A stretch of DNA of 64,000 nt from Pseudomonadota bacterium (GCA_022560735.1 JADFSO010000009.1:8519-72518); one strand, 5' to 3'. Shown: positions 3,604 to 57,650, counted from the stretch's first letter. A program made the numbers and translations. The notes: a model not told the origin generated them from the sequence alone.

Positions 3604-4818
3604 TCAGCCTGCCATCGACCACTGTTCGCGGATCTTCTTTTCCTGCTCCTCGACGTGTTTCGACCAGCGTGCAAGAAAACGATAGGCGCGATCTTGCGGC
3701 AGCGGTTTACAAACGTAATAACCCTGGGCGATATCACAACCGACCGAGCGCAGGAAATTCAGGGTGGGTTCGGACTCCACGCCTTCGGCGCAGACATTCA
3801 ACCCAAGCGCATGGGCCAGGTTGACTACAGCGGCAACCACGGATCTGGCCTCTTCACTGCGCCGAACCTCGAGAATAAAACTCGTGTCTACCTTGACCTC
3901 GGAAAACGGCATCCGGTAAAGCATTATTAACGGCGACGAAGCCGTACCAAAATTGTCGAGGCAAAGCTCTACCCCTTTCTTGCGCAGCCGTTTGAGAATA
4001 GCCAGGCTTTGCTCCGCATCCGTCATCGCCGAAGTTTCCGACAGCTCGAGCATCAGGCGGTCGGCCGGAACGTCGTAACGCGCCAGCAATTCCTCGACCA
4101 TGTCGGGGAAATCATCCTCCACCAGTTGGCGAGCCGACACATTGACACCGACATTGACTTCCTCGCCTTTTTCGGCCCAGGCCGCATTCGCTGCAAGCAC
4201 TTGCTCCAGCACGCAGCGAGACAATTCACCGGACAGACCGAGTTCCTCTGCCTTCGCCAGGAACGACCCCGGCATCATCAGGCCCTGGACCGGATGCTGC
4301 CACCTCACGAAGGCTTCCGCGCCACACATATAGATCGGACCGGTCAGGCGCAGACGCGCCTTCGGCTGGTAATGCACAACCATCTGGCCATCGTCGATGG
4401 CATTCAATATCAGCTCTTTGGTAAACCGCATTTCACCGCCGGGTACAGCCGTCAGCAGCATTTCCAGGTCATCCAGCATGACTGGCTTGGTCAGTCTGCC
4501 GGCCATCCGCAATCCCAGGCTGCGCCCCAGTTTTTCGGCCGATTTCAGCACCCGGTCATCCAGACCGCTGATCAGCAGGATTGCGGCCTGGCACTCCTCG
4601 TCCGCGAGATACCGAATCAGCTGGATCCCGTCAGCGTCCGGCATCTGCAGATCCATGATGATATAGCTCGGGTCGAACTCCTGTATCGCCCGCCTGAAAT
4701 GATCGGCATCATCGGCCAGCCTGACTTCAAATCCCTGCCCGCGCCCGACCTCGCCGATGAAACGCATAATTTCCGCTTCATCGTCGATTACCAGCAGCCG
4801 TTTTTCGGGTTCGTTCAA
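3604..4818 (-). CDS. Response-regulator receiver + EAL domain protein (c-di-GMP phosphodiesterase-like)
   Basis: N-terminal REC (LLVIDDEAEI..DLQMPDADG). EAL-domain landmarks are YQPK, EAFVRW, VNVS, ELSET, KVDTSF, AEGVES and QGYY, but DDFGTG is replaced by DNFGTA. Confidence 0.85.
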   Translation of the reverse strand: MNEPEKRLLVIDDEAEIMRFIGEVGRGQGFEVRLADDADHFRRAIQEFDPSYIIMDLQMPDADGIQLIRYLADEECQAAILLISGLDDRVLKSAEKLGRSLGLRMAGRLTKPVMLDDLEMLLTAVPGGEMRFTKELILNAIDDGQMVVHYQPKARLRLTGPIYMCGAEAFVRWQHPVQGLMMPGSFLAKAEELGLSGELSRCVLEQVLAANAAWAEKGEEVNVGVNVSARQLVEDDFPDMVEELLARYDVPADRLMLELSETSAMTDAEQSLAILKRLRKKGVELCLDNFGTASSPLIMLYRMPFSEVKVDTSFILEVRRSEEARSVVAAVVNLAHALGLNVCAEGVESEPTLNFLRSVGCDIAQGYYVCKPLPQDRAYRFLARWSKHVEEQEKKIREQWSMAG

Positions 4819-4978: not shown

Positions 4979-5632
4979 TCAGCTATCGACAGAAATCAGC
5001 CCTTCACGAATGGCGTAACGAGTCAGATCGGCGAGGGTATTCACTTCAAGCTTTTTCATGATATTGCTGCGGTGCGTCTCGACTGTCTTGGCGCTGACGT
5101 GCAGCAATTCTCCGACCTGTGCGGTTTTCTTGCCTTCCGCCAGTAATTGCAAAACCTCTCGCTCGCGGCCGGTCAGTATCTCGGGCAGCGCTTGCTCACC
5201 ACCGCTGAGCAATGCCTCGAGCTGGTCTTTGTATTTGTCCCGGAGAGCATTGCTGAGATAAATCTCACCGTCGATCACGGTCTTGATGGCCAGTTCCAGC
5301 TCCTCGACAGCGTTTTCCTTCAGCACGTAGGCACGAGCCCCGGCACGCATCATTGCCGCTACATAGCGCCGGTCATCGTGCATGGTAAGCGCAATGACCG
5401 GCACTTTCGGATGCAACTTGCGCAATTTGCGGGTGGCTTCGATGCCATTCAACTCAGGCATGCCAATATCGATAATGACCAGGTCCGGCTCGAGACGGCG
5501 GACCATTCGTTCGACCTCGCGACCCGAGTTCGCAATGCCCACCACAGCGAACTTGCTCTCCCTTTCAAGCAGGACACGCAAGCCCTCGTTACAAATCTGG
5601 TGGTCATCCGCCAACAATATCTTAAGGGGCAT
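4979..5632 (-). CDS. NarL/FixJ (LuxR-type HTH) response regulator
   Basis: MPLKILLADDH..DIGMPELNG receiver plus C-terminal LTGREREVLQLLAEGKKTAQVGELLHVSAKTVETHRSNIMKKL. The start at 5632 overlaps the end of the kinase gene; the track start at 5671 is less likely. Confidence 0.85.
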   Translation of the reverse strand: MPLKILLADDHQICNEGLRVLLERESKFAVVGIANSGREVERMVRRLEPDLVIIDIGMPELNGIEATRKLRKLHPKVPVIALTMHDDRRYVAAMMRAGARAYVLKENAVEELELAIKTVIDGEIYLSNALRDKYKDQLEALLSGGEQALPEILTGREREVLQLLAEGKKTAQVGELLHVSAKTVETHRSNIMKKLEVNTLADLTRYAIREGLISVDS

Positions 5633-6944
5633 TGGACTCACCCCGCTTGCCCAAGGGAACACAGATGCCAACCGTGGAACCTTGCCCTGGCTCGCTATCG
5701 ATATTCAACTTACCATCCAGCGGTTTCAGTCTTTCGCGAATACTGAACAAGCCGAACCCCGGCCCGACGGCACTCATATTGAAACCGCAGCCGTTGTCTT
5801 TTACATCGACACACAACATGCCGCTGTTTTCAGAAATACTGACGGTCGCCGATTTTGCCCCGGAGTGCTTGGTTACGTTGACCAACAGTTCCCTGACCAG
5901 CTGATACATCGTGACCCGTAAATCATGATCGAGCAATAACTCACCACCCACGACCTCTACTCCGCATTCGATACCGTGCCGCTCACTGAGCATATCGCTC
6001 AGCCATTCAACCGCAGCGACAAAACCCAGTTCATACAAGATGGGCGGGCTCAGGTCGAAGACCAGTGTGCGGGTTTCGCGAATGGCATCATCGATCAATT
6101 CATTGATTTCGTGCAAGGAATCAAAACTTCCTTCATCACTTGTATCTTTCAGCACCGATCCCAGTTTCAGCTTGGCGATACTGAGCTGCTGAGCCACGGT
6201 ATCGTGCAGGGCGATCGCTATGTCTCGCCGAACCTTTTCCTCTGCGAGCGCGAGTCGCGTCGTCATCGAGCGAAGCTGGCGTTCATAAAGGCGCAGGTTC
6301 TGCTCGGCTTTGTGACGCTGGGTCACATCCAGCAATGCCGAGACCCTGAGATTCCTGCCATTAATATCCACAGTCCGGGCACGTATTTCGACATCGATTT
6401 TTTCACCGTCCTTACGCACGCCGGTGACCATGTATGTATCTTCCAGCCGTCCGGCGACATGCTCCTTTACGACCTGGCGACCTTCCGGGTCAGTCAGGTC
6501 AAAAATGGAACGTCCGATCAGTTCTTCGCGGCTATAACCGAGATCACGACAGCCCTGCTCATTGACAGCGAGGATTTTGCCATTTTCAGATATGAACAAG
6601 CCCTCGAAGCTGGCATCGCTCATGATGTTCAGCCAGGCCTGGCTTTCCTGCAGCCCCTGTTTCGCCTCTTTAAGACGGCTCACAAAGCCGTTGGCAGTCA
6701 TGCCCAGTACCAGGAATGTCACCGATGTGATCAGCCGGTGCACGAGATTGTCTTCGCCCGGTTTGATCAGGGCGGCCAGGAAACTTTGTTGCTCATCGAA
6801 AAAAGCCGCCAGCCAGGCATCGACGCACCAGAACAGGACAGCGACCGCGAAAACACCCCAGAAAAAACCGCCAAAGCAATGCGCCACGAGCGATTTTTTT
6901 TCCGTGGGTGGAACAGGCAACAAGGGCAGTTCGTTCATATTCAT
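5622..6944 (-). CDS. Membrane PAS-domain sensor histidine kinase (HisKA_3/NarX type)
   Basis: 440 aa. N-terminal TM helices, a PAS segment, the H-box ALHDTVAQQLSIAKLKL, and HATPase_c motifs (DNGCGF, GFGLFSIRERL). Confidence 0.85.
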   Translation of the reverse strand: MNMNELPLLPVPPTEKKSLVAHCFGGFFWGVFAVAVLFWCVDAWLAAFFDEQQSFLAALIKPGEDNLVHRLITSVTFLVLGMTANGFVSRLKEAKQGLQESQAWLNIMSDASFEGLFISENGKILAVNEQGCRDLGYSREELIGRSIFDLTDPEGRQVVKEHVAGRLEDTYMVTGVRKDGEKIDVEIRARTVDINGRNLRVSALLDVTQRHKAEQNLRLYERQLRSMTTRLALAEEKVRRDIAIALHDTVAQQLSIAKLKLGSVLKDTSDEGSFDSLHEINELIDDAIRETRTLVFDLSPPILYELGFVAAVEWLSDMLSERHGIECGVEVVGGELLLDHDLRVTMYQLVRELLVNVTKHSGAKSATVSISENSGMLCVDVKDNGCGFNMSAVGPGFGLFSIRERLKPLDGKLNIDSEPGQGSTVGICVPLGKRGESNAP

Positions 6945-15848: not shown

Positions 15849-18575
15849 ATGAAAAGGTTCAGCGGTCGCACACTGAGTGCACTGGCGGTACTGTTATTCG
15901 GCGCTAACGCCTTCGCGTCCACACCGGACATCGATATTCCATACGAGAAATTCACGCTGGACAACGGCCTGCGGGTCATTGTGCACGAAGATCGCAAGGC
16001 GCCGATCATTGCGGTCAGCGTCTGGTATCACGTCGGCTCAAAGGACGAAAAACCGGGCAAGACCGGTTTTGCTCATCTTTTCGAACACCTGATGTTCAAC
16101 GGTTCGGAAAATTACAATGACGAGTATTTCAAGCCATTTGACGAAGTCGGCGCCACCGCGATGAACGGAACGACCTGGTTCGACCGCACCAACTACTTTC
16201 AGAACGTCCCGACCACGGCGCTGGAAATGGCGCTGTGGATGGAATCTGACCGCATGGGGCATTTGCTCGGCGTGATAACCCAGAAAAAACTCGACGAGCA
16301 GCGCGGCGTCGTGCAGAACGAGAAGCGCAGCGGCGACAATCAGCCTTATGGCCTGGTCGAATACCGCACGCTGGAGGGGCTGTTCCCCGTGGGACACCCC
16401 TATCGCTGGAGTACGATCGGGTCGATGGAGGATCTGGACGCGGCTTCTCTCGATGATGTCAAGGATTGGTTCCGCCAGTATTATGGCGCGGCCAACACGG
16501 TGCTGGTTCTGGCCGGCGACATCAATGCCGCGGAGGCGCGTCCGCTGGTGGAAAAATATTTTGCCGATATCGACGCCGGCCCACCGCTCAGGCGCCTCAA
16601 GACAATGGTCCCGGTGCGCGACACCAGCACCCATGAAGTCATGTATGAGCAAGTTCCCCAGGCCCGTCTTTACCGGTCATGGGCAGTACCGGGTCGCACC
16701 GAACTCGAAGGCGCGCACCTGCAGCTGGCTGCTGCGATCCTTGGCAGCGGTCGCAATTCGCGATTGTATCGCGAACTGGTCTACCAGCGGCAGATCGCAA
16801 CCGCGGTCAGCGTCGATTATGAGGCACACACGCTGGCAGGTATTTTTACCATCGACGCGATGGTGAGACCGGGTTCCGATCCTGCTGAAGTCAGCCGGGT
16901 CATCGACCAGGTCGTCGAGGAATTTCTCGACAAGGGTCCAACCAAGGCCGAGATGGCGCGTGTTCGCACTTCCATTAATGCCGGCTTGATTCGCGGTCTC
17001 GAGAGGATCGGCGGATTTGGCGGCAAAGCCGTTACCCTGGCTCGCAGCGAGCTGTATGGCGGCAGCCCCGATTTCTGGCGCACCCGCCTGGGCTGGCTGA
17101 ACTCGGCCAGCCGGCGCGACGTACTCCGCACCGGCAACAAGTGGCTCGGCAAGGGCAATTACCGGCTCGACGTGCTCCCCTTTGCCAAATTCCAGACAGT
17201 GGCAACCGATGCCGATCGCAGCAAGATTCCGTATCCGTCTGCGATGCCGGCGTTGAAATTCCCGCAAATAGAGCGTGCGCGGCTGAAAAATGGCGTCGAG
17301 GTCGTGCTGGCCGAACGCCATTCCGTACCCATAGTCAATATCGCCATCCAGTTTGATGCCGGCTATGCCGCCGATGCCGGTCGCAAGCTCGGTGCCGCCA
17401 GTTTCACGCTGGCTATGTTGCGTGAGGGCACGACCAGCCGCGATGCGCTTGAGATCAGTGAGGAATCCGAACTGCTGGGCGCCCGGATTCGGACCAGCTC
17501 CAATCTGGATATGTCGCAAGCCAGCCTGAATGCGCTGAAGGAGAACCTCGACGAGTCGCTGGAGCTGTTTGCCGATATCGTCCGTAACCCGGCTTTCAAG
17601 ATCGAGGAAATAGAACGGCTACGGCCCCGTTCGCTGGCGGCGATCCAGCAGGAAAAAGTGCAGCCGGTGAGCATCGCCCTGCGCGAGCTGCCACCGTTAC
17701 TGTATGGCAAGGGTCACGCCTATGGAATTCCGTTTACCGGTTCCGGCACGGAGGAGTCGGTCAAGTCGATTACCCAGGATGATCTGCGGACATTTCACAG
17801 GGATTGGCTGCGGCCTGACAATGCGACCATTTTTGTCGTCGGCGATACCAGCATGAGCGAAATGCTGCCGTTGCTGAACCAGTACTTCGGTGACTGGGAT
17901 GCACCGACCAGCGAAAAGCCGATCAAGAATATCGCCATGGTCGAATTGGCAAGCGAAGCGAAAATTTATCTGGTCGACAAGCCGGGTTCGCCGCAGTCGC
18001 TGATCCTGGCCGGTCACCTCTCACCACCGGCGGGCGCCGATAATAACCTGGTTATCAATGCCATGAACAATGTCATCGGCGGCGATTTTACGTCACGGAT
18101 CAATATGGATTTGCGCGAGACGAAATCCTGGTCGTATGGCGCCCAGACTTTCATGATCGGCGCGCGCGGGCAACAGCCCTACCTGGTTTATGCGCCCGTG
18201 CAGATCGATCGCACGGCCGACTCGGTGATCGCCTTGCTGGAGCAGTTCGACGCCTACCTGGGGCCCGAGCGGACGCGGCCCGAGGAACTCGACCGGGTCG
18301 TCAAGAACGAAACCCGCAGCCTGCCGGGGCAGTATGAAACCGGTGCGGCGGTGCTGGCGACCATGCTATCCAACGCACGATACGGCCGACCCGACGACTA
18401 TGTAATGACGCTGACCGACCAGTACGAAGCGATGACCCTCGAGCAGATCGATGCCGCGGCCGATGAGGTCCTGAAACCTCATCAACTGATCTGGCTGATC
18501 GTCGGCGATCTTTCCAAGATAGAGGAACCCATCCGGGCGCTCGGCATCGCGGAGGTGGAAATACTGAAATTGTAG
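15849..18575 (+). CDS. Secreted M16 (pitrilysin/insulinase) zinc peptidase, double-module
   Basis: Start MKRFSGRTLSALAVLLFGANAFA (signal peptide) at 15849. HxxEH zinc motif HLFEHLMFNGS. A second inactive-type M16 half follows. The track start at 15612 overlaps the upstream gene. Confidence 0.85.
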   Translation: MKRFSGRTLSALAVLLFGANAFASTPDIDIPYEKFTLDNGLRVIVHEDRKAPIIAVSVWYHVGSKDEKPGKTGFAHLFEHLMFNGSENYNDEYFKPFDEVGATAMNGTTWFDRTNYFQNVPTTALEMALWMESDRMGHLLGVITQKKLDEQRGVVQNEKRSGDNQPYGLVEYRTLEGLFPVGHPYRWSTIGSMEDLDAASLDDVKDWFRQYYGAANTVLVLAGDINAAEARPLVEKYFADIDAGPPLRRLKTMVPVRDTSTHEVMYEQVPQARLYRSWAVPGRTELEGAHLQLAAAILGSGRNSRLYRELVYQRQIATAVSVDYEAHTLAGIFTIDAMVRPGSDPAEVSRVIDQVVEEFLDKGPTKAEMARVRTSINAGLIRGLERIGGFGGKAVTLARSELYGGSPDFWRTRLGWLNSASRRDVLRTGNKWLGKGNYRLDVLPFAKFQTVATDADRSKIPYPSAMPALKFPQIERARLKNGVEVVLAERHSVPIVNIAIQFDAGYAADAGRKLGAASFTLAMLREGTTSRDALEISEESELLGARIRTSSNLDMSQASLNALKENLDESLELFADIVRNPAFKIEEIERLRPRSLAAIQQEKVQPVSIALRELPPLLYGKGHAYGIPFTGSGTEESVKSITQDDLRTFHRDWLRPDNATIFVVGDTSMSEMLPLLNQYFGDWDAPTSEKPIKNIAMVELASEAKIYLVDKPGSPQSLILAGHLSPPAGADNNLVINAMNNVIGGDFTSRINMDLRETKSWSYGAQTFMIGARGQQPYLVYAPVQIDRTADSVIALLEQFDAYLGPERTRPEELDRVVKNETRSLPGQYETGAAVLATMLSNARYGRPDDYVMTLTDQYEAMTLEQIDAAADEVLKPHQLIWLIVGDLSKIEEPIRALGIAEVEILKL

Positions 18576-18629
18576 GAGGGCCTTCAGGCCCGATGAAAAA
18601 CCAATCGCGGCTGAAGCCGCTCCTGCAGG
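18571..18629. repeat. REP doublet (REPIN-like), locus A
   Basis: TGTAGGAGGGCCTTCAGGCCCGATG and, inverted, CCAATCGCGGCTGAAGCCGCTCCTGCAGG. Each has a 5-bp stem and 4-nt loop. The first unit overlaps the TAG stop of the M16 gene. Same family as 20603..20662 and 57498..57619. Confidence 0.8.
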
Positions 18630-20465: not shown

Positions 20466-20602
20466 TTTATGCCTCCCGGTCTGGCGTTACTGGTTCGCGT
20501 ACTTTTAGGACAGCGTCGGTGAGCGGTTAGTTTAATACAGGCGGGATGCCGAATTGGGCCTGAACAGAGTATCTACGAACCGTTGGCGGAACAACGATGT
20601 AT

Positions 20603-20662
20603 CGTAGGAGCGGCTTTAGCCGCGATAGGCGTTCGCATCGGGCCTGAAGGCCCTCCTACAAG
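20603..20662. repeat. REP doublet (REPIN-like), locus B
   Basis: CGTAGGAGCGGCTTTAGCCGCGATAGG followed by inverted CATCGGGCCTGAAGGCCCTCCTACAAG. Confidence 0.8.
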
Positions 20663-22385: not shown

Positions 22386-22494
22386 ACGGACCAGGCCCGG
22401 GCGACCCCGGGAATCACGCGTATTCTGACTTCTCGATGCGCCACCGGCTTGTACACGGTTGTGCGGCTACCTGGTTCGAAACTCCTTGTCGGAT

Positions 22495-22520
22495 ACAGAA
22501 AACCCCGCGCAAACGGGGTC
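22495..22520 (-). terminator. Rho-independent terminator of the SWIB gene
   Basis: On the minus strand: CCCCG-TTTGCG-CGGGG followed by TTTTCTGT, about 60 nt downstream of the stop at 22578. Confidence 0.5.
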
Positions 22521-22577
22521 CTCCGTCAAGAATCCCACCAGCCACCGTCAGAAAAGACGTGGCAGGGGTGCTGCTGG

Positions 22578-22904
22578 CTATTCCACGTTCGCACTGACCA
22601 CAGCGGCCATCTGCATCATATCTATGGTTTCGCCTTCCTGCATGTTACGCAGGTCGGTAAGATTGCCCGACTTGCTCGTGGAATTTGTGTTCTTGAACAC
22701 CTTGAGCAGTTTTGCATCGGCGACGATGTACTTCCCTGCGTTTTCCGGTGTGCCGTTGACAGATTTGGTTTGAAGCTTATTGGCTTTTATATAATCCCAA
22801 AGTCTTTTTGTAATCTCGGTGCGGGGCAGTTCGCTTACTCCACAAAATTCAGCCAAATCAGCTTTAAGTTTAACCGGTTTTTTAAGTCCTTTTAGTTCAG
22901 CCAC
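22578..22904 (-). CDS. SWIB/MDM2-domain protein
   Basis: 108 aa, GTG start with an AAGGAG SD. Core SWIB motif ELPRTEITKRLWDYIKANKLQ ... ADAKLLKVF. Local AT-rich context. Confidence 0.7.
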   Translation of the reverse strand: MAELKGLKKPVKLKADLAEFCGVSELPRTEITKRLWDYIKANKLQTKSVNGTPENAGKYIVADAKLLKVFKNTNSTSKSGNLTDLRNMQEGETIDMMQMAAVVSANVE

Positions 22905-22988
22905 AACAAGCTCCTTACATAATTAAGGTCAGTAATAATATATCCGTCGAATACGACAAAGCGGACAGACCTCACGGTTTCCGGAACC

Positions 22989-23012
22989 ATAGTGTGAACC
23001 CGGTCACACTAT
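22989..23012. promoter_or_regulatory. CRP/Vfr-type binding site upstream of the SWIB gene
   Basis: Perfect inverted repeat ATAGTGTGA-ACCCGG-TCACACTAT, containing the CRP core TGTGA-N6-TCACA. Its centre is about 96 nt upstream of the SWIB start codon. Confidence 0.5.
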
Positions 23013-23153
23013 TTCCGTAATCGAAAGAGTTCTGCAACAAGCGGCCGCCAATTTCACCGTATCGGGATACATAATTCTATCACTTCGACGTGACTGAGCG
23101 CGAGCCGAAAAAGGCCTCAAATCGCTGTGACAAGCCGGTCGCGGTTGAAATTG

Positions 23154-23852
23154 CTACTGTGAAACCCAGTCGGCCTTGTTCGCCAGCTTTTTTGCAGCGG
23201 CAAGCAAATCCTCGGCAGACAAGCGAATCCTGTAGTCAGGGTTCACAAAGTCAAAAACAATCTCGCCTGAGCGATCGATGACATAAACCGCCGGCACGGT
23301 AAGGGCCTTGTGCTTGCCGATCGAAGAGTCCGCGTAATCACGGCCTTTTTTCTTCAGGTTATCGATCAACCTCTCGTCTACCCTGAACGCAGTACCCAGC
23401 GCCATTGCCGCATTGAGATCCGCATCCGAAAGAATGAGATAGTCCAGTCCGTCAATACTCTCCTGGGTTTCTCTCTTGAGACTCGAGTACAGCAAATCCG
23501 GCCTGTCGTTACTCAGGAACAAGACGTCGAAACCATTCTTTTTGAGCTCGGGAATGGCAAAGCGCATGTTCGAGAGCTGCATGTTGCAGAAGGGGCACCA
23601 GCCGCCCCGGATCGAGATCAGGATCGTTGGACGTTCGAGGTTTTCCGGGTCAAACACGAAGGGTTCGTCGTCAACCGTGCGCACGGTAAATGCGGGCGCC
23701 CTGTCGCCGGTTGCAAGCGGTGTCGTTTCCTCTGCGCTCGCAGGCAATGCCGCATAATCGTCCGCGACTGCCCGGTTGGATTGCGAGTAGACAAAGGTCC
23801 CCAATAACAAAGCCAGAATGGCCAGGTAGACGAGGTTTCTGCTAAAGCCCAT
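23154..23852 (-). CDS. Membrane-anchored AhpC/TSA-redoxin family protein
   Basis: Start MGFSRNLVYLAILALLLGTFVYS at 23852 with an AAGGAGAA SD. Redox motif GGWCPFCNMQL. The track start at 23921 lacks an SD. Confidence 0.75.
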   Translation of the reverse strand: MGFSRNLVYLAILALLLGTFVYSQSNRAVADDYAALPASAEETTPLATGDRAPAFTVRTVDDEPFVFDPENLERPTILISIRGGWCPFCNMQLSNMRFAIPELKKNGFDVLFLSNDRPDLLYSSLKRETQESIDGLDYLILSDADLNAAMALGTAFRVDERLIDNLKKKGRDYADSSIGKHKALTVPAVYVIDRSGEIVFDFVNPDYRIRLSAEDLLAAAKKLANKADWVSQ

Positions 23853-24069
23853 GGAAAGTTCTCCTTGTTCGATAATCCACCAGACCATCGAGGGCGAGAT
23901 AATATTACAGCGGCTCGCCAATCAACAGCAGTCCACGGCCGATATTGGCCATGATGCCTGGCGCCTGTCATTTGTTGCCGCTGGTTAATATCCAGCCATG
24001 TAATAACGCACTTGAATTTCGGGTCTGGTGCTTGTTGAATGTAATGCAATCATCGCCTGAGGATTCGAC

Positions 24070-24670: not shown

Positions 24671-24714
24671 TGGAGCGGGTGATGGGAATCGAACCCACAT
24701 TCTCAGCTTGGGAA
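24671..24714 (-). repeat. Displaced 3' half of tRNA-Gly (island attachment-site direct repeat)
   Basis: 44/44 nt identical to 27854..27897 (tggagcgggtgatgggaatcgaacccacattctcagcttgggaa). Sequence diverges immediately beyond. Confidence 0.9.
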
Positions 24715-25046
24715 TCCTGCTTAGCCTACTCGGCACAAAAGGTCACAACAACTAACAACAGAAAATTCAACCACTAACAGCATTGAACTTATTGCTGTTT
24801 GTGGCCAGTTATGGCCCTTTATTGTGTTGTAGTGCCCCACCAGTGTCCCACACGGTCTGGCATGTTGTTTTTATCGGCTGGAATTCTTTGACTGTCATTT
24901 TTGGCAGACTTTGATAGCCATGCTGAGCGACAGTAAATCGTTGCATAAACTACAGAGGCCGAATATACGTACGCAGTCGTGCCATGGCTGTCCTCAACAG
25001 AGTGCTTGCAATGAGGAGGAGTCCATATACGGACATTAAAAGTAAA

Positions 25047-25065
25047 CCCCGCCACGAGGGCGGGG
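25047..25065 (-). terminator. Rho-independent terminator oriented for minus-strand transcription
   Basis: On the minus strand: CCCCGCC-CTCGT-GGCGGGG followed by TTTACTTTTAAT. On the plus strand no T tract follows the hairpin. Confidence 0.5.
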
Positions 25066-25111
25066 CTGATTTAAGCCGGTGAGTTATCCCTCGGTGCGCA
25101 GGACCAAGTCT

Positions 25112-25402
25112 TTAGTGTCCAAACGTGATTGGTGGCGTAAAGCTTCCGTTAGGAACTCCGGTTATGTTGGGATCATTTTCGAATATCGGAACGACTGGAA
25201 AATTAGAGTTGATCTCGTCGCACACACCGTCGCCGCTCGAGTCGTAATTCGCCACAGAGAAGTGTAGAATCAGACGCAAAGTGGGCTGTCCGTCCGCGTT
25301 TAGAGCCCTTGGCCCAATATGTCCTCCAACAGCGCCGAGAGCACCAAGTCCCAGTATCGTCCACACCGGTGGCGCTTCAGCCGATTGGGCGGTTTCGATC
25401 AA
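25112..25402 (-). CDS. Doubtful small ORF (96 aa) overlapping the 5' end of the EF-hand gene in antisense
   Basis: ORF-track entry. Its C-terminal part has a TSP3-like acidic loop (YDSSGDGVCDEIN), and the terminator at 25047..25065 is correctly placed. I see no clear SD and no recognisable family. Confidence 0.2.
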   Translation of the reverse strand: MIETAQSAEAPPVWTILGLGALGAVGGHIGPRALNADGQPTLRLILHFSVANYDSSGDGVCDEINSNFPVVPIFENDPNITGVPNGSFTPPITFGH

Positions 25403-27520
25403 GTCCGCCTGGAAACCGGCATGGACCTGATGGCGTTAGATCAGCTTGATCAGAAGCTCTGGGCAACACTCGGGTGCCCCACCCACGGGCTGGAAATCGA
25501 TGCCAAGACCCTTGAGCTGATTGACGTCGACGGAGACGGACGCATTCGCGTACCCGACATCATCGCCGCAGTGCAGTGGGCCGGTACTGTCTTACGGGAT
25601 CCAGATGACCTCACTAAAAGGGCGAGTTCCTTGCCGCTTGAGGCCATCGACGAGCGAACTGAGGAGGGCAGGCAATTGCTTGCTTCGGCGAAACGGGTCC
25701 TCCTGAACCTGGGGAAGGGCGAGGCTACGGTAATTACCCCGGAAGACACGGGGAACATCGAACGGAACCTCAACGAGACGAAGTTTAACGGCGACGGGAT
25801 CATTCCCCTCGCCTCAGCGGACGATAAGGCGACTAAGGCCCTGATCGAAGCGATCATGGAGTGCGTTGGCTCAGAGCAAGACCGATGCGGCGATCCTGGG
25901 GTCTCGCAGGAAAAAGTCGAAGAGTTCTTCGCGCAGGCCCGGGCCTACTCGGCCTGGAGGCAGAAGGCGGAGAACGATCGGGACAACATTCTCCCGTTCG
26001 GTGACGCGACGGCCGCGGCCGCGGCGGTCTTCAGAGCCGTGAAATCGAAGGTGGACGATTACTTCACCCGTTGCCGGCTTGCGCAGTTCGACCCGCAGGC
26101 GGCTGCGCCGCTAAATCCGCGCGAAGCACAGTACGAGGCGCTTTTATCGACGGAGCTTTCGGCCACAACGGAAGAGATGGCTGCCTTTCCTCTCGCTCAC
26201 ATCGCACCCGGAAGGGCCCTCCCACTCGAGGAGGGCGTAAACCCAGCCTGGGTCGCTAGGGTAGCGAAATTGCGCGCCGAGATCGTGCGGCCGATGTTCG
26301 GGGACACGGACTGCGTAGAGGACGAACAATGGATGAGCCTGAGCAGCAAGTTCGCGGCCCACGAGGACTGGTTGAACGAGAAGGAAGGCGCTGTCGTCGA
26401 CGTGCTAGGCCTTGGGCGTGTGCGTGAGATCCTAGCCGGCGACGGCGAAGCGGCCGTAACCGCGCTGATCGAGAAGGATAAGGCGCTCGAGTCCGAAGCA
26501 AACGCCATTGTCTCGTTAGACAAGCTCATCCGCTACTATCGTGATCTGTTCACCCTCCTAAACAACTTCGTGTCGTTCCACGATTTTTACACGCCCGAGA
26601 CCAAAGCCATTTTCCAGGCGGGTACCCTCTATCTGGATGGACGGAGCTGCGAACTCTGCGTGAGGGTGGACGACGTGGAAAAGCACGCAAGGCTCGCCGC
26701 CCTGAGCCGCACTTACCTCGCCTACTGCAGTTGCGTGCGTAAGAACGGCGCCGAGCAGCAGATTAACATTGCCGCGGCGTTCACTAATGGCGACGGAAGC
26801 AACCTTCGGGTCGGCCGAAACGGTATCTTCTACGACCGCCAGGGGCAAGACTGGCATGCCACCATCGTCAAGGTGATTGAGAACCCGATCAGCGTCCGCG
26901 AGGCCTTCTGGGCGCCGTATCGGCGCGTCGGGCGAATGGTAGGGACGCAAGTTGAGAGGTTCGCAGCCGCTCGGGAAAAGCAAGTCGAGGCGAGTGCGGC
27001 CAAAGGCATCAGCGCTGTTCTGGAGGAGGCCGAGCCGCAGTTCGACGTGGCCAAGTTCGCGGGTATCTTCGCTGCTATAGGGCTCGCCATCGGAGCCATC
27101 GGCACCGCGATCGTAGCTACGGTAACAGGCTTTCTGCACCTCATGTGGTGGCAGATGCCGTTGGCGGTCATCGGTCTCTTCTTCGTCATCTCCGGACCCT
27201 CGATGGCCGCCGCATATCTGAGCCTGCGCAAACGCAACCTGGCTCCCATCCTCGACGCGAACGGCTGGGCGGTGAATGCGCGCGCCGTGATCAACCTCCC
27301 CTTCGGCGCCTCGCTCACTAGCATCGCCAAGCTCCCCGAGGGCTCCGAACATTCGCTGAAGGATCCGTTCGCCGTCAAGCGCAAGCGTTGGAAGCTCCTC
27401 CTCGCGTTGTTTGTGCTTTTAGTCGCAGCAGGAGTTCTCTGGCAAATGGGGACTCTGAGTGTATGGTGGGAGCGCATCAGCACCGGTGAGACGGCCGCCG
27501 CGGTCGAAGAGCCAGCCTAA
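25319..27520 (+). CDS. Orphan 733-aa EF-hand / C-terminal multi-TM protein (function unknown)
   Basis: Long uninterrupted ORF. Canonical 12-residue EF loop DVDGDGRIRVPD (25523..25558). Large soluble N-terminal region. Hydrophobic helices FAGIFAAIGLAIGAIGTAIVATVTGFL, MPLAVIGLFFVISGPSMAAAYL and WKLLLALFVLLVAAGVLW. In-frame stop at 25301 just upstream of the ATG. Confidence 0.8.
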   Translation: MSSNSAESTKSQYRPHRWRFSRLGGFDQVRLETGMDLMALDQLDQKLWATLGCPTHGLEIDAKTLELIDVDGDGRIRVPDIIAAVQWAGTVLRDPDDLTKRASSLPLEAIDERTEEGRQLLASAKRVLLNLGKGEATVITPEDTGNIERNLNETKFNGDGIIPLASADDKATKALIEAIMECVGSEQDRCGDPGVSQEKVEEFFAQARAYSAWRQKAENDRDNILPFGDATAAAAAVFRAVKSKVDDYFTRCRLAQFDPQAAAPLNPREAQYEALLSTELSATTEEMAAFPLAHIAPGRALPLEEGVNPAWVARVAKLRAEIVRPMFGDTDCVEDEQWMSLSSKFAAHEDWLNEKEGAVVDVLGLGRVREILAGDGEAAVTALIEKDKALESEANAIVSLDKLIRYYRDLFTLLNNFVSFHDFYTPETKAIFQAGTLYLDGRSCELCVRVDDVEKHARLAALSRTYLAYCSCVRKNGAEQQINIAAAFTNGDGSNLRVGRNGIFYDRQGQDWHATIVKVIENPISVREAFWAPYRRVGRMVGTQVERFAAAREKQVEASAAKGISAVLEEAEPQFDVAKFAGIFAAIGLAIGAIGTAIVATVTGFLHLMWWQMPLAVIGLFFVISGPSMAAAYLSLRKRNLAPILDANGWAVNARAVINLPFGASLTSIAKLPEGSEHSLKDPFAVKRKRWKLLLALFVLLVAAGVLWQMGTLSVWWERISTGETAAAVEEPA

Positions 27521-27594
27521 ACAGAAGGTTGATCTCGCTCCTAGTGGCTGGCGGGGTAGAGTTAGGGATGATTGGGCTCTAGTCTGAATGTCGC

Positions 27595-27709
27595 CTTCGG
27601 GTCGGTAAGCGACCGGGTCAATTTGAGATCACCGAGCAAGCTCGCCAGGCGATTCGCACATGGATTGACGAGGCAAACTTAGGAACAGCTCAGTACTTGT
27701 TTCCGAGCT
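27595..27709 (+). pseudogene. Tyrosine (phage-type) integrase fragment
   Basis: Hand translation LRVGKRPGQFEITEQARQAIRTWIDEANLGTAQYLFPS matches the conserved mid-section of tRNA-targeting integrases (..PVQFEITEQTR..W.....YLFPS). There is no N-terminal part and no catalytic RHRY region. Confidence 0.6.
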
Positions 27710-27715
27710 GTATCA

Positions 27716-27838
27716 ACGGCGCGGATCATTCTGCACTCCAACCGCGGCACGCAGTTTACCAGCGACGAATACCAGCGTTTCCTGCAAGGTCATAACCTGG
27801 TTTGCAGCATGAGCGGGGTGGGTAGTTCCGCGGACAAC
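27716..27838 (+). pseudogene. IS3-family transposase (OrfB) fragment
   Basis: Hand translation IILHSNRGTQFTSDEYQRFLQGHNLVCSMSGVGSSADN matches the DDE-core block HSDRGSQYTS...SMSRxGNCxDN. Only about 40 codons remain, and they end at the tRNA 3' end. Confidence 0.6.
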
Positions 27839-27853
27839 ACATATTGTTTTTAT

Positions 27854-27927
27854 TGGAGCGGGTGATGGGAATCGAACCCACATTCTCAGCTTGGGAAGCT
27901 GATGTTCTGCCTTTGAACTACACCCGC
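27854..27927 (-). tRNA. tRNA-Gly (anticodon CCC)
   Basis: The reverse complement folds as a cloverleaf: acceptor GCGGGTG/CACCCGC, D stem GTTC/GAAC, anticodon stem TCAGC/GCTGA with loop TTCCCAA, T arm GTGGG-TTCGATT-CCCAT, discriminator U plus encoded CCA. Confidence 0.9.
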
Positions 27928-51548: not shown

Positions 51549-53753
51549 ATGAATCCACGTATTGCCGCGGTACTTTTCACCGCCAGTCTTTTTTTAACGG
51601 GATGTTTCTCGGACGCAGACAAGAAAGATATAGTCGGCAGCATGGCGCCGGCCCCACCGCCGGGCGGTACAGCGCCGCCACCGCCTGCGACTGGCTTCAG
51701 GGCGATTTACGTGCTCGCCGCGGGTGCGTTGCCATACCCGAACTCGCTGTTTTTCAACGGCAGCACCGATGGCACGATGAACCTGCCGATACTCGCCACA
51801 TCGCCGCTTAACGAATCGCTAAACACCCTCGACGGTTTTTCGACTACCCAGTATTTCAACCAGATTTTCAGCGCGCCGATTAATCCTGCGACCATCATTG
51901 GCGGCGTTACGGTCAATGTGCTCGAGGTGGTCGAGGACCTGGCCACGACGGCCACCGTTGGCGTGGTCGGGGTTTTGATACCGGGCGTGGACTACAGTGT
52001 CGGCCTCTCCCCGGATCTCGATGCGGGTACGACGACCCTGCAGGTTCGGCCCTTGACGCCGCTCAATCCTTCGAGCTCTTACCTGGTGTTGATGACGAAC
52101 GGCATTGCCGACATCTCCGGAAGCGCGGCAACGGCGGACACCGATTATGCCGGGCTGCGCGACGCGGCGCTTGCCGGCATCACCCTGCCCGACCCCACGC
52201 AGGATGGCCTGCGGCAACTGATCGGCGCTCACCTTGCGATCGCGGGGGCGATCGGGATGGACCCGGCATCGATTATTTCCAGCGCCAATTTCCGCACCCA
52301 GTCGATCGGCAATGTCATGGCCGCGGCTGCAGCACAGACCGTGGGACAGGGCGCCGTGGTCGGACCATTCCCCGGTGCCGGGGTAGTGCCGGGATGTCTG
52401 ACCCCGATTCTGACTACACTCTGCGTGCTGCCGCCGAGCGCGATGCCGAGCGGCAATGCTGACATTTACGTCGGTCAGCTTTTGGTCGATTACTACAGCG
52501 ACACACCGGCAATCGATCCGGTAACCGGCCTGCCGGACACCAATGACGTTGCCGTCATCGAGTCGATATGGACCGGCGCGCCCTTCACGCTCGACCCGAC
52601 GGCCGCACCGACCAATTTTGTGCATCGTTTCAACCCGGTCCCGGTCGCAACGACCACGCTCGGGATTCCGTTGATAATGACCGTACCCAACGCGGCCTCG
52701 GCCTGGATGCAGGCGGTCGGTGCGCCACCGCCAGGCGGCTGGCCGGTGATTGTTTTTTCGCATGGCATTACCCGCAACCGGACCGATATGCTGGCGCTGG
52801 CCGAACCGTTCGCCGATGCCGGTTTCGTAGTCGTTGCGATCGATCACCCCTTGCATGGACTGACCGAGCCGAACCCGCTGGTCGATCCCACCGGGATATT
52901 CTTCCAGGCGGGAAGCGAGCGTACTTTTGACCTCGATGTCATCGACAACGCGACTTTCGCGCCTGGCCCTGACGGGCTGATCGACATATCGGGGTTCCAC
53001 GCATTTCTCAACCTGGGCAACCCGCTGACCATCCGCGATGCCTGGCGCCAGGGCGCAGTCGATCTGCTCGCGCTGGCTCGCACGATCGGCATCATCGATG
53101 TCGATGGCAACGGCAGCCCCAACGATGCAGCGGACCTCGATGGCAACCGGGTGCATTTTGTCGGCCAGTCGCTGGGCAGCATGATCGGCATCAATATGTT
53201 GAGCCACCAAAACAACGATTTCGAATCGGCGACACTGGGCGTGCCCGGTGGCCTGATTCTGCAACTGGCGCTGGATTCGCAATCGTTCGGCGCGCTGGTT
53301 ACCGGCGCGCTCGCGGCGCAGGGCCTGACGCCGGGCACATCGTTGTTCAATAACACCCTCCGTGACATGCAAACCGCTATCGATGGGGCCGACCCGTGGA
53401 ACTTCGCGGCCGGGGCCCTGGGCCAGCCGGTACACATGATCGAGGTTATCGGCGATGCGACCGTGCCCAATAGCGCGACCGAGCGGCTGATCGATGTCAT
53501 GGGGCTTCCCGGCATCTCGGCTGCGGCCTGTGGTGGAGCGGCCCCCTGTCCGAACTTCGTCTCACAGGGTGTGGTTCGTTTCACCGAGGGCAGCCATGGC
53601 TCGCAGCTCGATCCCACGGCCAGCCTCGCCGCGACTATCGAGATGATGACGGAGACAGTCGTCTTCCATGCCGGTAACGCGCCAGCCGGAATCCCCGGCG
53701 GGGGACTGGTCATCCTGATCAGCAATCCGGCGGTGATTTCGACCCAGCCGTAG
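51549..53753 (+). CDS. Lipoprotein lipase/esterase of the bacterial virulence-factor-lipase type (N-terminal Pro-rich domain + alpha/beta hydrolase)
   Basis: Lipobox LFLTGC. Pro-rich linker. GxSxG nucleophile elbow FVGQSLGSMIG. Candidate Asp (VIGDATVPN) and His (EGSHGS). Confidence 0.6.
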   Translation: MNPRIAAVLFTASLFLTGCFSDADKKDIVGSMAPAPPPGGTAPPPPATGFRAIYVLAAGALPYPNSLFFNGSTDGTMNLPILATSPLNESLNTLDGFSTTQYFNQIFSAPINPATIIGGVTVNVLEVVEDLATTATVGVVGVLIPGVDYSVGLSPDLDAGTTTLQVRPLTPLNPSSSYLVLMTNGIADISGSAATADTDYAGLRDAALAGITLPDPTQDGLRQLIGAHLAIAGAIGMDPASIISSANFRTQSIGNVMAAAAAQTVGQGAVVGPFPGAGVVPGCLTPILTTLCVLPPSAMPSGNADIYVGQLLVDYYSDTPAIDPVTGLPDTNDVAVIESIWTGAPFTLDPTAAPTNFVHRFNPVPVATTTLGIPLIMTVPNAASAWMQAVGAPPPGGWPVIVFSHGITRNRTDMLALAEPFADAGFVVVAIDHPLHGLTEPNPLVDPTGIFFQAGSERTFDLDVIDNATFAPGPDGLIDISGFHAFLNLGNPLTIRDAWRQGAVDLLALARTIGIIDVDGNGSPNDAADLDGNRVHFVGQSLGSMIGINMLSHQNNDFESATLGVPGGLILQLALDSQSFGALVTGALAAQGLTPGTSLFNNTLRDMQTAIDGADPWNFAAGALGQPVHMIEVIGDATVPNSATERLIDVMGLPGISAAACGGAAPCPNFVSQGVVRFTEGSHGSQLDPTASLAATIEMMTETVVFHAGNAPAGIPGGGLVILISNPAVISTQP

Positions 53754-57497: not shown

Positions 57498-57619
57498 CAT
57501 CGGGCCTGAAGGCCCTCCTGCATTCCGAACACGAACGTGAAGAAGCGGCTCGTAGGAGCGGCTTCAGCCGCGATTGGCGTTCTTCGTTCTTCCATCGGGC
57601 CTGAAGGCCCTCCCTACAG
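57498..57619. repeat. REP cluster (three units), locus C
   Basis: CATCGGGCCTGAAGGCCCTCCTGCA (57498..57522), CGTAGGAGCGGCTTCAGCCGCGATTGG (57551..57577) and CATCGGGCCTGAAGGCCCTCCCTACAG (57593..57619), between convergent rpoH and the ompA-like gene. Confidence 0.8.
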
Positions 57620-57650
57620 CGAATAAAAAATCACGGTATAACCGGACCGG

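Follow-up and report, generated by a model that had tools for sequence, protein, structure and literature searches.

tRNA-gene islands and the islet at tRNA-Gly(CCC)

In the Islander collection of genomic islands, a regenerated tRNA gene (tDNA) and a displaced fragment of it mark the island ends; anticodon-centred sites account for 2083 of 3919 islands, and 3′ fragments are present in 3760 (Hudson, Lau & Williams 2015, PMC4383910). Here we describe a small islet of this kind, at positions 24671-27927 of a 64,000-nt stretch of DNA from a Pseudomonadota bacterium (GCA_022560735.1, JADFSO010000009.1:8519-72518), the whole of which is referred to below as the window. The islet lies at a tRNA-Gly(CCC) gene and carries one intact gene of 733 codons, X733. 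We read it as the frozen remnant of an integrative element, that is, a decayed tRNA island with a horizontally moving cargo gene, and give this reading a probability of roughly 0.85. An earlier note, made from the sequence alone, had already proposed site-specific integration at this tRNA gene and suggested a search for an empty site; such a site was found in a relative (locus L015) that has a single copy of the 44-nt repeat bounding the islet.

Like members of the Islander 'A' class, the islet has an intact tDNA and a direct repeat of its 3′ part beginning at the anticodon loop. The regenerated tDNA is accompanied by a displaced fragment in direct orientation, the 3′ fragment begins at a known crossover sublocation, and the site is unoccupied in a relative. 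As in Islander islands, tyrosine-integrase DNA lies close to the 3′ end of the tDNA, here no more than about 130 bp away, on the far side of a fragment of an IS3-family insertion sequence (IS). Unlike those islands, the islet is only 3.2 kb long, retains about 44 codons of its integrase, which IS remnants interrupt or truncate, and has no recognizable attP arms. It encodes no tyrosine integrase and is thus a remnant rather than a functional member of the class, one that would fail any filter requiring an integrase gene.

Integrative elements of the ICEclc type, found in Pseudomonas and Burkholderia, also integrate into tRNA-Gly genes. They duplicate about 18 bp of the tRNA 3′ end, measure about 100 kb and carry conjugation genes. 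The islet shares their target, the 3′ end of a tRNA-Gly gene, and the best matches of its integrase fragment are in replicons of Burkholderia, Paraburkholderia and Pseudomonas. It differs from ICEclc in that its repeat is 44 bp long and starts at the anticodon loop, and in that no transfer genes are left.

The direct repeat and the empty site

The single tRNA gene of the window, tRNA-Gly(CCC), was located by ARAGORN at 27854-27927 on the minus strand, in agreement with Rfam (69.8 bits). Numbered from its 5′ end, the anticodon stem comprises nucleotides 26-30/38-42 and the loop 31-37. The repeat, as read from the sequence, corresponds to nucleotides 31-74, from the first anticodon-loop base through CCA, so the description of a perfect 44-bp copy of the tRNA 3′ half was correct in both extent and position. 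One copy (27854-27897, minus strand), here called attR, forms the 3′ 44 nt of the intact tRNA gene and would have been supplied by the element. The other (24671-24714, minus strand), called attL, is an exact match read as the displaced 3′ fragment of the original gene, and it is contiguous with the original chromosomal flank on the TlpA side.

The 44-mer, TGGAGCGGGTGATGGGAATCGAACCCACATTCTCAGCTTGGGAA, occurs in exactly two copies, in direct orientation. No further copy exists in the window even at three mismatches, and none of 100 dinucleotide-preserving shuffles produced a match with three mismatches allowed. A repeat search stretches the pair to 48 nt with one mismatch, the added four nucleotides matching at three of four positions, which is chance level. 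On the island-distal side, the sequences next to the two copies differ at once, in line with the claim that they part just outside the repeat. A 17-nt similarity between 24861 and 27840 (D2) is also at chance level, about one such pair being expected per 5.5 kb by estimate.

The PlsC-like protein encoded next to the tRNA gene was used as a query against metagenome contigs and returned 70 loci. One of these, L015, has the gene order TypA (95% amino acid identity), PlsC (90.5%), tRNA-Gly(CCC) (74 of 74 nucleotides identical), 46 bp of intervening DNA and a TlpA-like gene (85%), with one copy of the 44-mer only. The same flanks, a TlpA/ResA-like redoxin on the left and a PlsC-type acyltransferase and TypA on the right, enclose the islet in the window, as had been stated from the sequence. 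DNA homology between the window and L015 ends at 24714 and restarts at 27854, leaving 3,183 bp (one repeat copy plus 24715-27853) that the window has and L015 lacks. Because homology breaks off and resumes at precisely these positions, the 3,183 bp are regarded as an insertion.

Remnants within the islet

The edge of the islet next to attL (24715-24953) is AT-rich DNA with a GC content of about 0.45 and without a credible open reading frame (ORF); its ORFs have no Pfam match, the segment has no Rfam match, and no counterpart was found in the fetched loci, plasmids or phages. It is followed by an 83-bp remnant associated with the IS110 family (24954-25036, plus strand), recognized from a blastn match (E 4e-9), the annotation around that match and an alignment. 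The remnant is 81% identical to a stretch lying 195-275 nt downstream of a coding sequence (CDS) for an IS110-family transposase ('family 20') carried by a Pseudomonas veronii plasmid (LT599585, positions 4001-4081; locus L169). Its ends are conserved (AGAGGCCGAATATACGT ... CTTGCAATGAGGAGGAGTCCATATACGGACAT) and its middle varies; it is probably an IS-end remnant. In the IS1111-like branch of the IS110 family, the DNA that follows the transposase gene encodes a guide RNA.

A terminator-like hairpin detected by a scan at 25045-25067 on the minus strand, with a 9-bp stem containing 7 G-C pairs and a T-rich tail, lies at the left edge of the transferable gene module described below, whose boundary in locus L086 corresponds to 25046. 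An Rfam match to the P9 small RNA at this place (23.5 bits against a threshold of 43) was rejected as nothing other than the terminator hairpin. The 331-bp left arm (24715-25045) is clearly AT-richer than the window (GC 0.45 vs 0.58) and is the only part of the islet that stands out by composition; the adjoining 25046-25318 has a GC content of 0.535. The earlier note's description of some 600 bp of AT-richer non-coding DNA thus holds for the left arm and fails for the rest, the whole being a mosaic of AT-rich DNA, the IS110-associated remnant and the 5′ part of the module.

At the other end, next to the tRNA 3′ end, lie two short gene fragments whose nature and placement had been called correctly. 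The first (27598-27729, plus strand) is an internal piece of a tyrosine recombinase/integrase of about 44 codons, whose start, catalytic C-terminus and stop are all gone. By tblastn it matches 235 plasmid records at 51-55% identity over 40-44 amino acids, with E values down to 1e-7; among the 15 matches listed, six coincide with a CDS whose annotation is tyrosine recombinase or phage integrase, the rest falling where no gene is annotated. Its Pfam and PHROG hidden Markov model matches are, taken alone, not significant. The second fragment (27707-27838, plus strand) consists of some 45 codons from the rve/DDE core of an IS3-family transposase, supported by Pfam rve (E 5.5e-4, profile positions 68-101/102) and a PHROG transposase family (E 3e-9). 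It represents the C-terminal end of the rve core only, is in a different frame from the integrase fragment and stops about 15 bp short of the 3′ end of the tRNA; a metagenome contig, L013, terminates at 27706, adjoining its start. No inverted repeats of the IS3 element and no second copy of it are present in the window, nor is there a complete element with OrfA/OrfB and terminal inverted repeats. Neither the 179 fetched loci nor the rest of the window contains a relative of the left arm, the integrase fragment or the IS3 fragment. Since no intact recombination gene and no attP arm survives, the islet is, judging from its sequence, unable to move by itself.

X733 and its transferable module

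Between these remnants lies X733 (25319-27520, plus strand), the one intact gene that had been noted in the islet; its status as a gene is supported by the ORF, its homologues and their alignments, the structural model and the pattern of substitution. It is part of a 2.56-kb module (25046-27607, plus strand) that is 97.15% identical by blastn to positions 1972-4532 of L086, a locus from a gammaproteobacterial metagenome-assembled genome. The flanks of the module in L086 (NmrA-like, NTPase, beta-lactamase-like and UvrD-like genes) are unrelated to those in the window. A leader of 57 nt (25262-25318, plus strand), conserved in an alignment of eight upstream regions from different contexts, travels with X733. 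It contains a −10-like TAGAAT box (25265-25270) and no clear Shine-Dalgarno sequence, and a sigma-70 consensus scan found no full promoter upstream of the gene. The leader with its TAGAAT box is absent in locus L084 alone, where X733 overlaps the end of the upstream gene.

A minus-strand reading frame within the module (25112-25260, ending in ANYDSSGDGVCDEINSNFPVVPIFENDPNITGVPNGSFTPPITFGH) stops 40 nt before the terminator-like hairpin. It is 94-97% conserved in L086 and not in the other contexts, has no Pfam match, and may be the remnant of a former neighbour of X733.

Close alleles of X733 (79-97% amino acid identity) are spread over no fewer than seven unrelated contexts: the window; L086; L166; L085/L167/L168; L001; L002/L003; and L084. 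Homology between contexts is confined to X733 and less than 100 bp, or to 2.56 kb in the case of L086. In four of the contexts, namely the window, L166 (a large serine recombinase), L003 (IS3 fragments) and L001 (rve_3 and IS240 genes), recombinase or transposase genes lie within a few kilobases. Synonymous divergence (dS) between X733 and its copies in other contexts is 0.045-0.32, against 0.34-0.61 for core genes compared with L015; for PlsC, dS is at least 1.3 in every other relative from the metagenome scan, except for L014 (0.21). In two metagenomes that contain X733 alleles at dS 0.26-0.28, only PlsC relatives of 75-84% amino acid identity were found. The ratio of nonsynonymous to synonymous divergence for X733 is 0.18-0.36 vs 0.08-0.14 for the flanking core genes, pointing to purifying selection that is weaker than on the core. 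Because close alleles (at least 79% identity) occupy at least seven contexts, four of them beside recombinases or transposases, and show lower dS than the host backbones, X733 is read as horizontally moving cargo, and the sequence comparisons are suggestive of horizontal movement of the close allele group.

Other vehicles were considered for the gene. A phage or plasmid origin was rejected after the searches gave no phage match, no viral-contig match and only one fragment, on an Aeromonas plasmid; a phage origin is excluded by the collections searched. For an integron cassette, homology between contexts ceases 1-30 bp past the stop codon, with no attC-like sequence in common beyond that point.

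X733 works alone. All-against-all clustering of ORFs revealed no neighbour family at a fixed position and none in more than 12 of the 69 loci from GTDB genomes, and a conserved operon partner was ruled out by this clustering around the 69 homologues together with neighbour scans. The 118 immediate neighbours examined with Pfam and PADLOC are mainly housekeeping genes (UvrC, GidA, RlmJ, aquaporin).

The region directly upstream of the gene appears to be still subject to insertion, because a strain variant (L176) diverges from the window at 25262, just upstream of the leader, and the ends of several contigs cluster between 25193 and 25313. In L176, positions 5602-5769 hold unrelated DNA right upstream of the TAGAAT box, the opposite strand of which opens an ORF MFKWLGIILGAVRAAMRCRHDLATENLALRQQ; this DNA may be an insertion sequence. 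It weakly resembles positions 6022-6187 and 13146-13195 of L001, one of which lies beside a tRNA-Gly-like remnant. That remnant is a 34-nt fragment (L001 13086-13119) spanning T-arm to anticodon stem, 91% identical to the tRNA of the window. It lies 2.9 kb downstream of the X733 homologue, just after a phosphoenolpyruvate carboxylase gene, and no full tRNA was found by ARAGORN in the L001 locus.

The X733 protein

Searches of Pfam, NCBIfam, PADLOC and PHROGs with X733 returned nothing beyond a sub-threshold match to an MFS model over its transmembrane (TM) helices, and ten longer members of the family contain no fused domains. The family is nevertheless very large: more than 7,700 homologues were found in a collection of 5.8 billion proteins (2,756 representatives at 50% clustering), nearly all of full length and named 'hypothetical' (NCBI) or, by automatic rules, 'EF-hand domain-containing protein' (UniProt). 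Homologues with 48-63% identity occur in Chromatiaceae, Competibacteraceae, Nitrosomonas, Gallionella, Azospira, Syntrophobacterales and Desulfobulbus, as well as in Bacteroidota, Verrucomicrobiota, Planctomycetota (Jettenia), Prosthecochloris, Elusimicrobia and Methylomirabilis. Cultivable hosts include Allochromatium vinosum (ADC63720.1) and Azospira oryzae (WP_130458958.1); no mention of the accessions of the homologues from cultured hosts was found in the literature.

The AlphaFold2 model of X733 (pLDDT 80, pTM 0.63) has no significant Foldseek match in the PDB (best E 0.68, to a protein that is not an EF-hand protein) or in BFVD (best E 0.25), and the sequence itself has none in the PDB. 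A profile of the family gave 23 sub-threshold matches to PDB sequences, 17 of them EF-hand proteins, over residues 54-96 or 133-200; those to polcalcin, NCS-1 and calmodulin have E values of only 0.02-0.9.

Residues 69-80 nevertheless form a canonical 12-residue EF-hand loop, D-x-[DN]-x-D-G-x-[IV]-x-x-x-[ED], with the consensus DxDxDGRIRxPE. Conservation counted in 41 diverse sequences is complete at D69, D73, I/V76 and E/D80, with D71 in 38 (N in the other three) and G74 in 36, and in the model the loop is flanked by helices 62-68 and 78-91. A second, degenerate loop motif, FNGDGI, follows at residues 156-161. X733 is in these respects like EF-hand proteins of the calmodulin, polcalcin and neuronal calcium sensor type; unlike them, it is 733 residues long, about 90% of it has no detectable relative, and it has three TM helices.

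Further along the protein, a helical region precedes a beta domain in which C444/C447/H456/C470 are conserved, possibly as a metal site, and the beta domain is followed by a long helix. The C-terminal TM helices are at about 580-606, 613-637 and 691-709, the first being rich in small residues (G582, A585, G588, A590, G592). P627, R639 and the invariant loop LDANGWAxN (645-653) are also conserved. X733 lacks a signal peptide, and the loop that joins TM2 to TM3 has basic residues on either side; we infer that the N-terminus and this loop would face the cytoplasm, the C-terminus being predicted to lie outside. The product is most likely a membrane-anchored, cytoplasmic, predicted Ca2+-binding protein. 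That it could be a lone-acting Ca2+-responsive membrane protein, possibly an oligomeric channel or a membrane effector, is speculative. The broadest proposal, in which X733 would found an unrecognised family with a new fold, spanning Proteobacteria, Bacteroidota, Verrucomicrobiota, Planctomycetota, Chlorobi and further phyla, acting as a lone Ca2+-sensing membrane effector or channel and spreading horizontally as a single gene in some lineages, is unlikely to hold in full. As for the suggestion that a novel function hides in the islet, the cargo does belong to a true orphan family, and no function could be shown.

Origin of the islet and alternative readings

A tyrosine-integrase element would have inserted itself by site-specific recombination into the tRNA-Gly(CCC) gene, in its 3′ part, with a crossover inside the block of identity from the anticodon loop to the 3′ end, as in 'A' class tRNA islands. 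The element's own copy would now complete the tRNA, the displaced chromosomal copy being attL. An IS3 element, and probably one of the IS110 family, would have landed in the islet afterwards; through these insertions and through deletions, both attP arms and the greater part of the integrase would have been lost, and with them the capacity to excise. Selection would have kept one gene, in the form of the 2.56-kb module with stand-alone X733 and its own conserved leader.

It is possible, if not the favoured view, that the X733 module is a later arrival, brought by IS-mediated or illegitimate recombination into an already decaying islet that acted as a sink for mobile DNA. The borders of the module, at 25046 and 27607, are sharp, the first some 10 bp from the IS110-associated remnant and the second directly abutting the start of the integrase fragment; the copy in L086 has no adjoining integrase or tRNA repeat; and strains are polymorphic for insertion at 25262. 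However, no terminal repeats or target duplications were found around the module, and deletions in a larger original island would look alike.

More doubtful is the idea that the islet predates the split from L015, so that the empty site there arose by precise excision or by deletion between the 44-bp repeats. The heavy decay of the islet suggests age, and the contig of L014 (94% identical) stops within the tRNA, immediately 5′ of the part that is repeated, an outcome to be expected of a duplicated tRNA half; this hints at such a duplication in L014. The three variants of the locus differ in other ways too, however (a YaiI gene in L014; a methyltransferase replacing a SWIB/AhpC segment in L015), the islet carriers seen are near-identical strains only, and either polarity still implies site-specific recombination at the 44-mer.

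It is quite improbable that X733 is a single-gene anti-phage or abortive-infection effector combining a sensor domain with membrane-disrupting TM helices. The gene is solitary, patchy and, here, island-borne, its product pairs a cytoplasmic domain with TM helices, and genes for a UvrD-like helicase and an NTPase lie no more than 5 kb away in L086. Against this, X733 has no match in PADLOC-DB 2.0 and shows no residence in defence islands, its neighbours in 69 diverse genomes being mainly housekeeping genes, with next to no enrichment of defence genes and isolated methyltransferase and mads matches only; its cross-phylum identity of 52-63% is unusually high for defence genes; and it is absent from the phage and viral collections. 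A defence role is unlikely.

The notion that faulty assembly or binning created the repeat and islet, to which the many metagenome contigs breaking in the islet or at its edges (25193, 25313, 27706 and inside the tRNA) might lend colour, is effectively refuted, because at least 16 independent contigs that are colinear with the window and 98.9-99.9% identical to it cover both junctions: ten, from different samples, cross attL from the TlpA side into the islet, and at least six span TypA/PlsC, the tRNA and the IS3 and integrase fragments into X733. The near-identical strains were located in many samples by exact-protein look-up.

Several points weigh against the decayed-island reading with its mobile cargo and against the role proposed for the protein. 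The composition and codon usage of X733 are near host-like: the GC content is 0.61 and that at third codon positions (GC3) 0.75, vs 0.586 ± 0.025 and 0.70 ± 0.04 for 37 long ORFs of the window, and its codon-usage distance of 1.06, the highest among genes of at least 600 codons, is yet inside the overall range, so the windowed check suggested by the earlier note did not mark the gene as foreign. No mobile-element family is among the 25 commonest neighbours in the 69 GTDB loci, and the X733 family as a whole is not an island gene, because housekeeping neighbours dominate outside the close clade. Horizontal transfer as judged from dS is suggestive only, because the link between X733 contigs and PlsC contigs of the same metagenomes is circumstantial. 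A 53-residue query from the integrase fragment found no close relative among the 5.8 billion proteins; with no intact integrase and no close relative of the fragment, the original element is not reconstructable, and X733 may have been its original cargo or a later arrival. For the protein, the Pfam EF-hand model has no match at E ≤ 0.1, no curated EF-hand model or structure matches significantly, and the motifs and the AlphaFold2 model are the sole basis of a Ca2+ or channel role.

Other variable DNA in the window

The islet had been called the only clearly accessory DNA in the window, a view that did not survive the comparison with relatives, since a SWIB/AhpC-like segment nearby also varies. 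This segment, left of the TlpA-like gene (22440-23986), contains a SWIB-domain gene (22578-22904) and a 255-aa AhpC/redoxin gene (23154-23921); in L015 (5379-6227) it is replaced by a SAM-methyltransferase-like gene. In L014, a YaiI/YqxD-family gene (1491-1997) lies between PlsC and the 5′ end of tRNA-Gly and is absent from both the window and L015.

A palindrome of about 56-70 bp (GTAGGAGCGGCTTTAGCCGCGAT...GGCCCTCCTAC), resembling repetitive extragenic palindromes or miniature inverted-repeat transposable elements, is present in at least three copies (18570-18629, 20604-20661 and 57550-57624). The element or its surroundings are polymorphic, because a 69-bp stretch beside one copy (20565-20633) is missing from the near-identical strains L009, L011 and L012. 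A second long ORF (51549-53753, plus strand, 734 aa) also has relatively deviant codon usage; it was rejected as an X733 homologue, as tblastn of X733 against the window finds X733 only.

Significance

The islet is an ordinary, clean example of a known process, island integration into a tRNA gene followed by IS-driven decay, and teaches little that is new about it, although both the empty and the occupied site are documented. Its lasting value lies in the family of its cargo gene, which is very large and strongly conserved, unnamed in curated libraries and unlike solved structures. The family combines a textbook loop of the Ca2+-binding type with a predicted membrane anchor, and Ca2+ sensing in bacteria is poorly understood. 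Being solitary, widely distributed and present in cultivable hosts, X733 is a tractable candidate for testing. If it is indeed a lone Ca2+-sensing protein, the family would give a handle on bacterial Ca2+ signalling.

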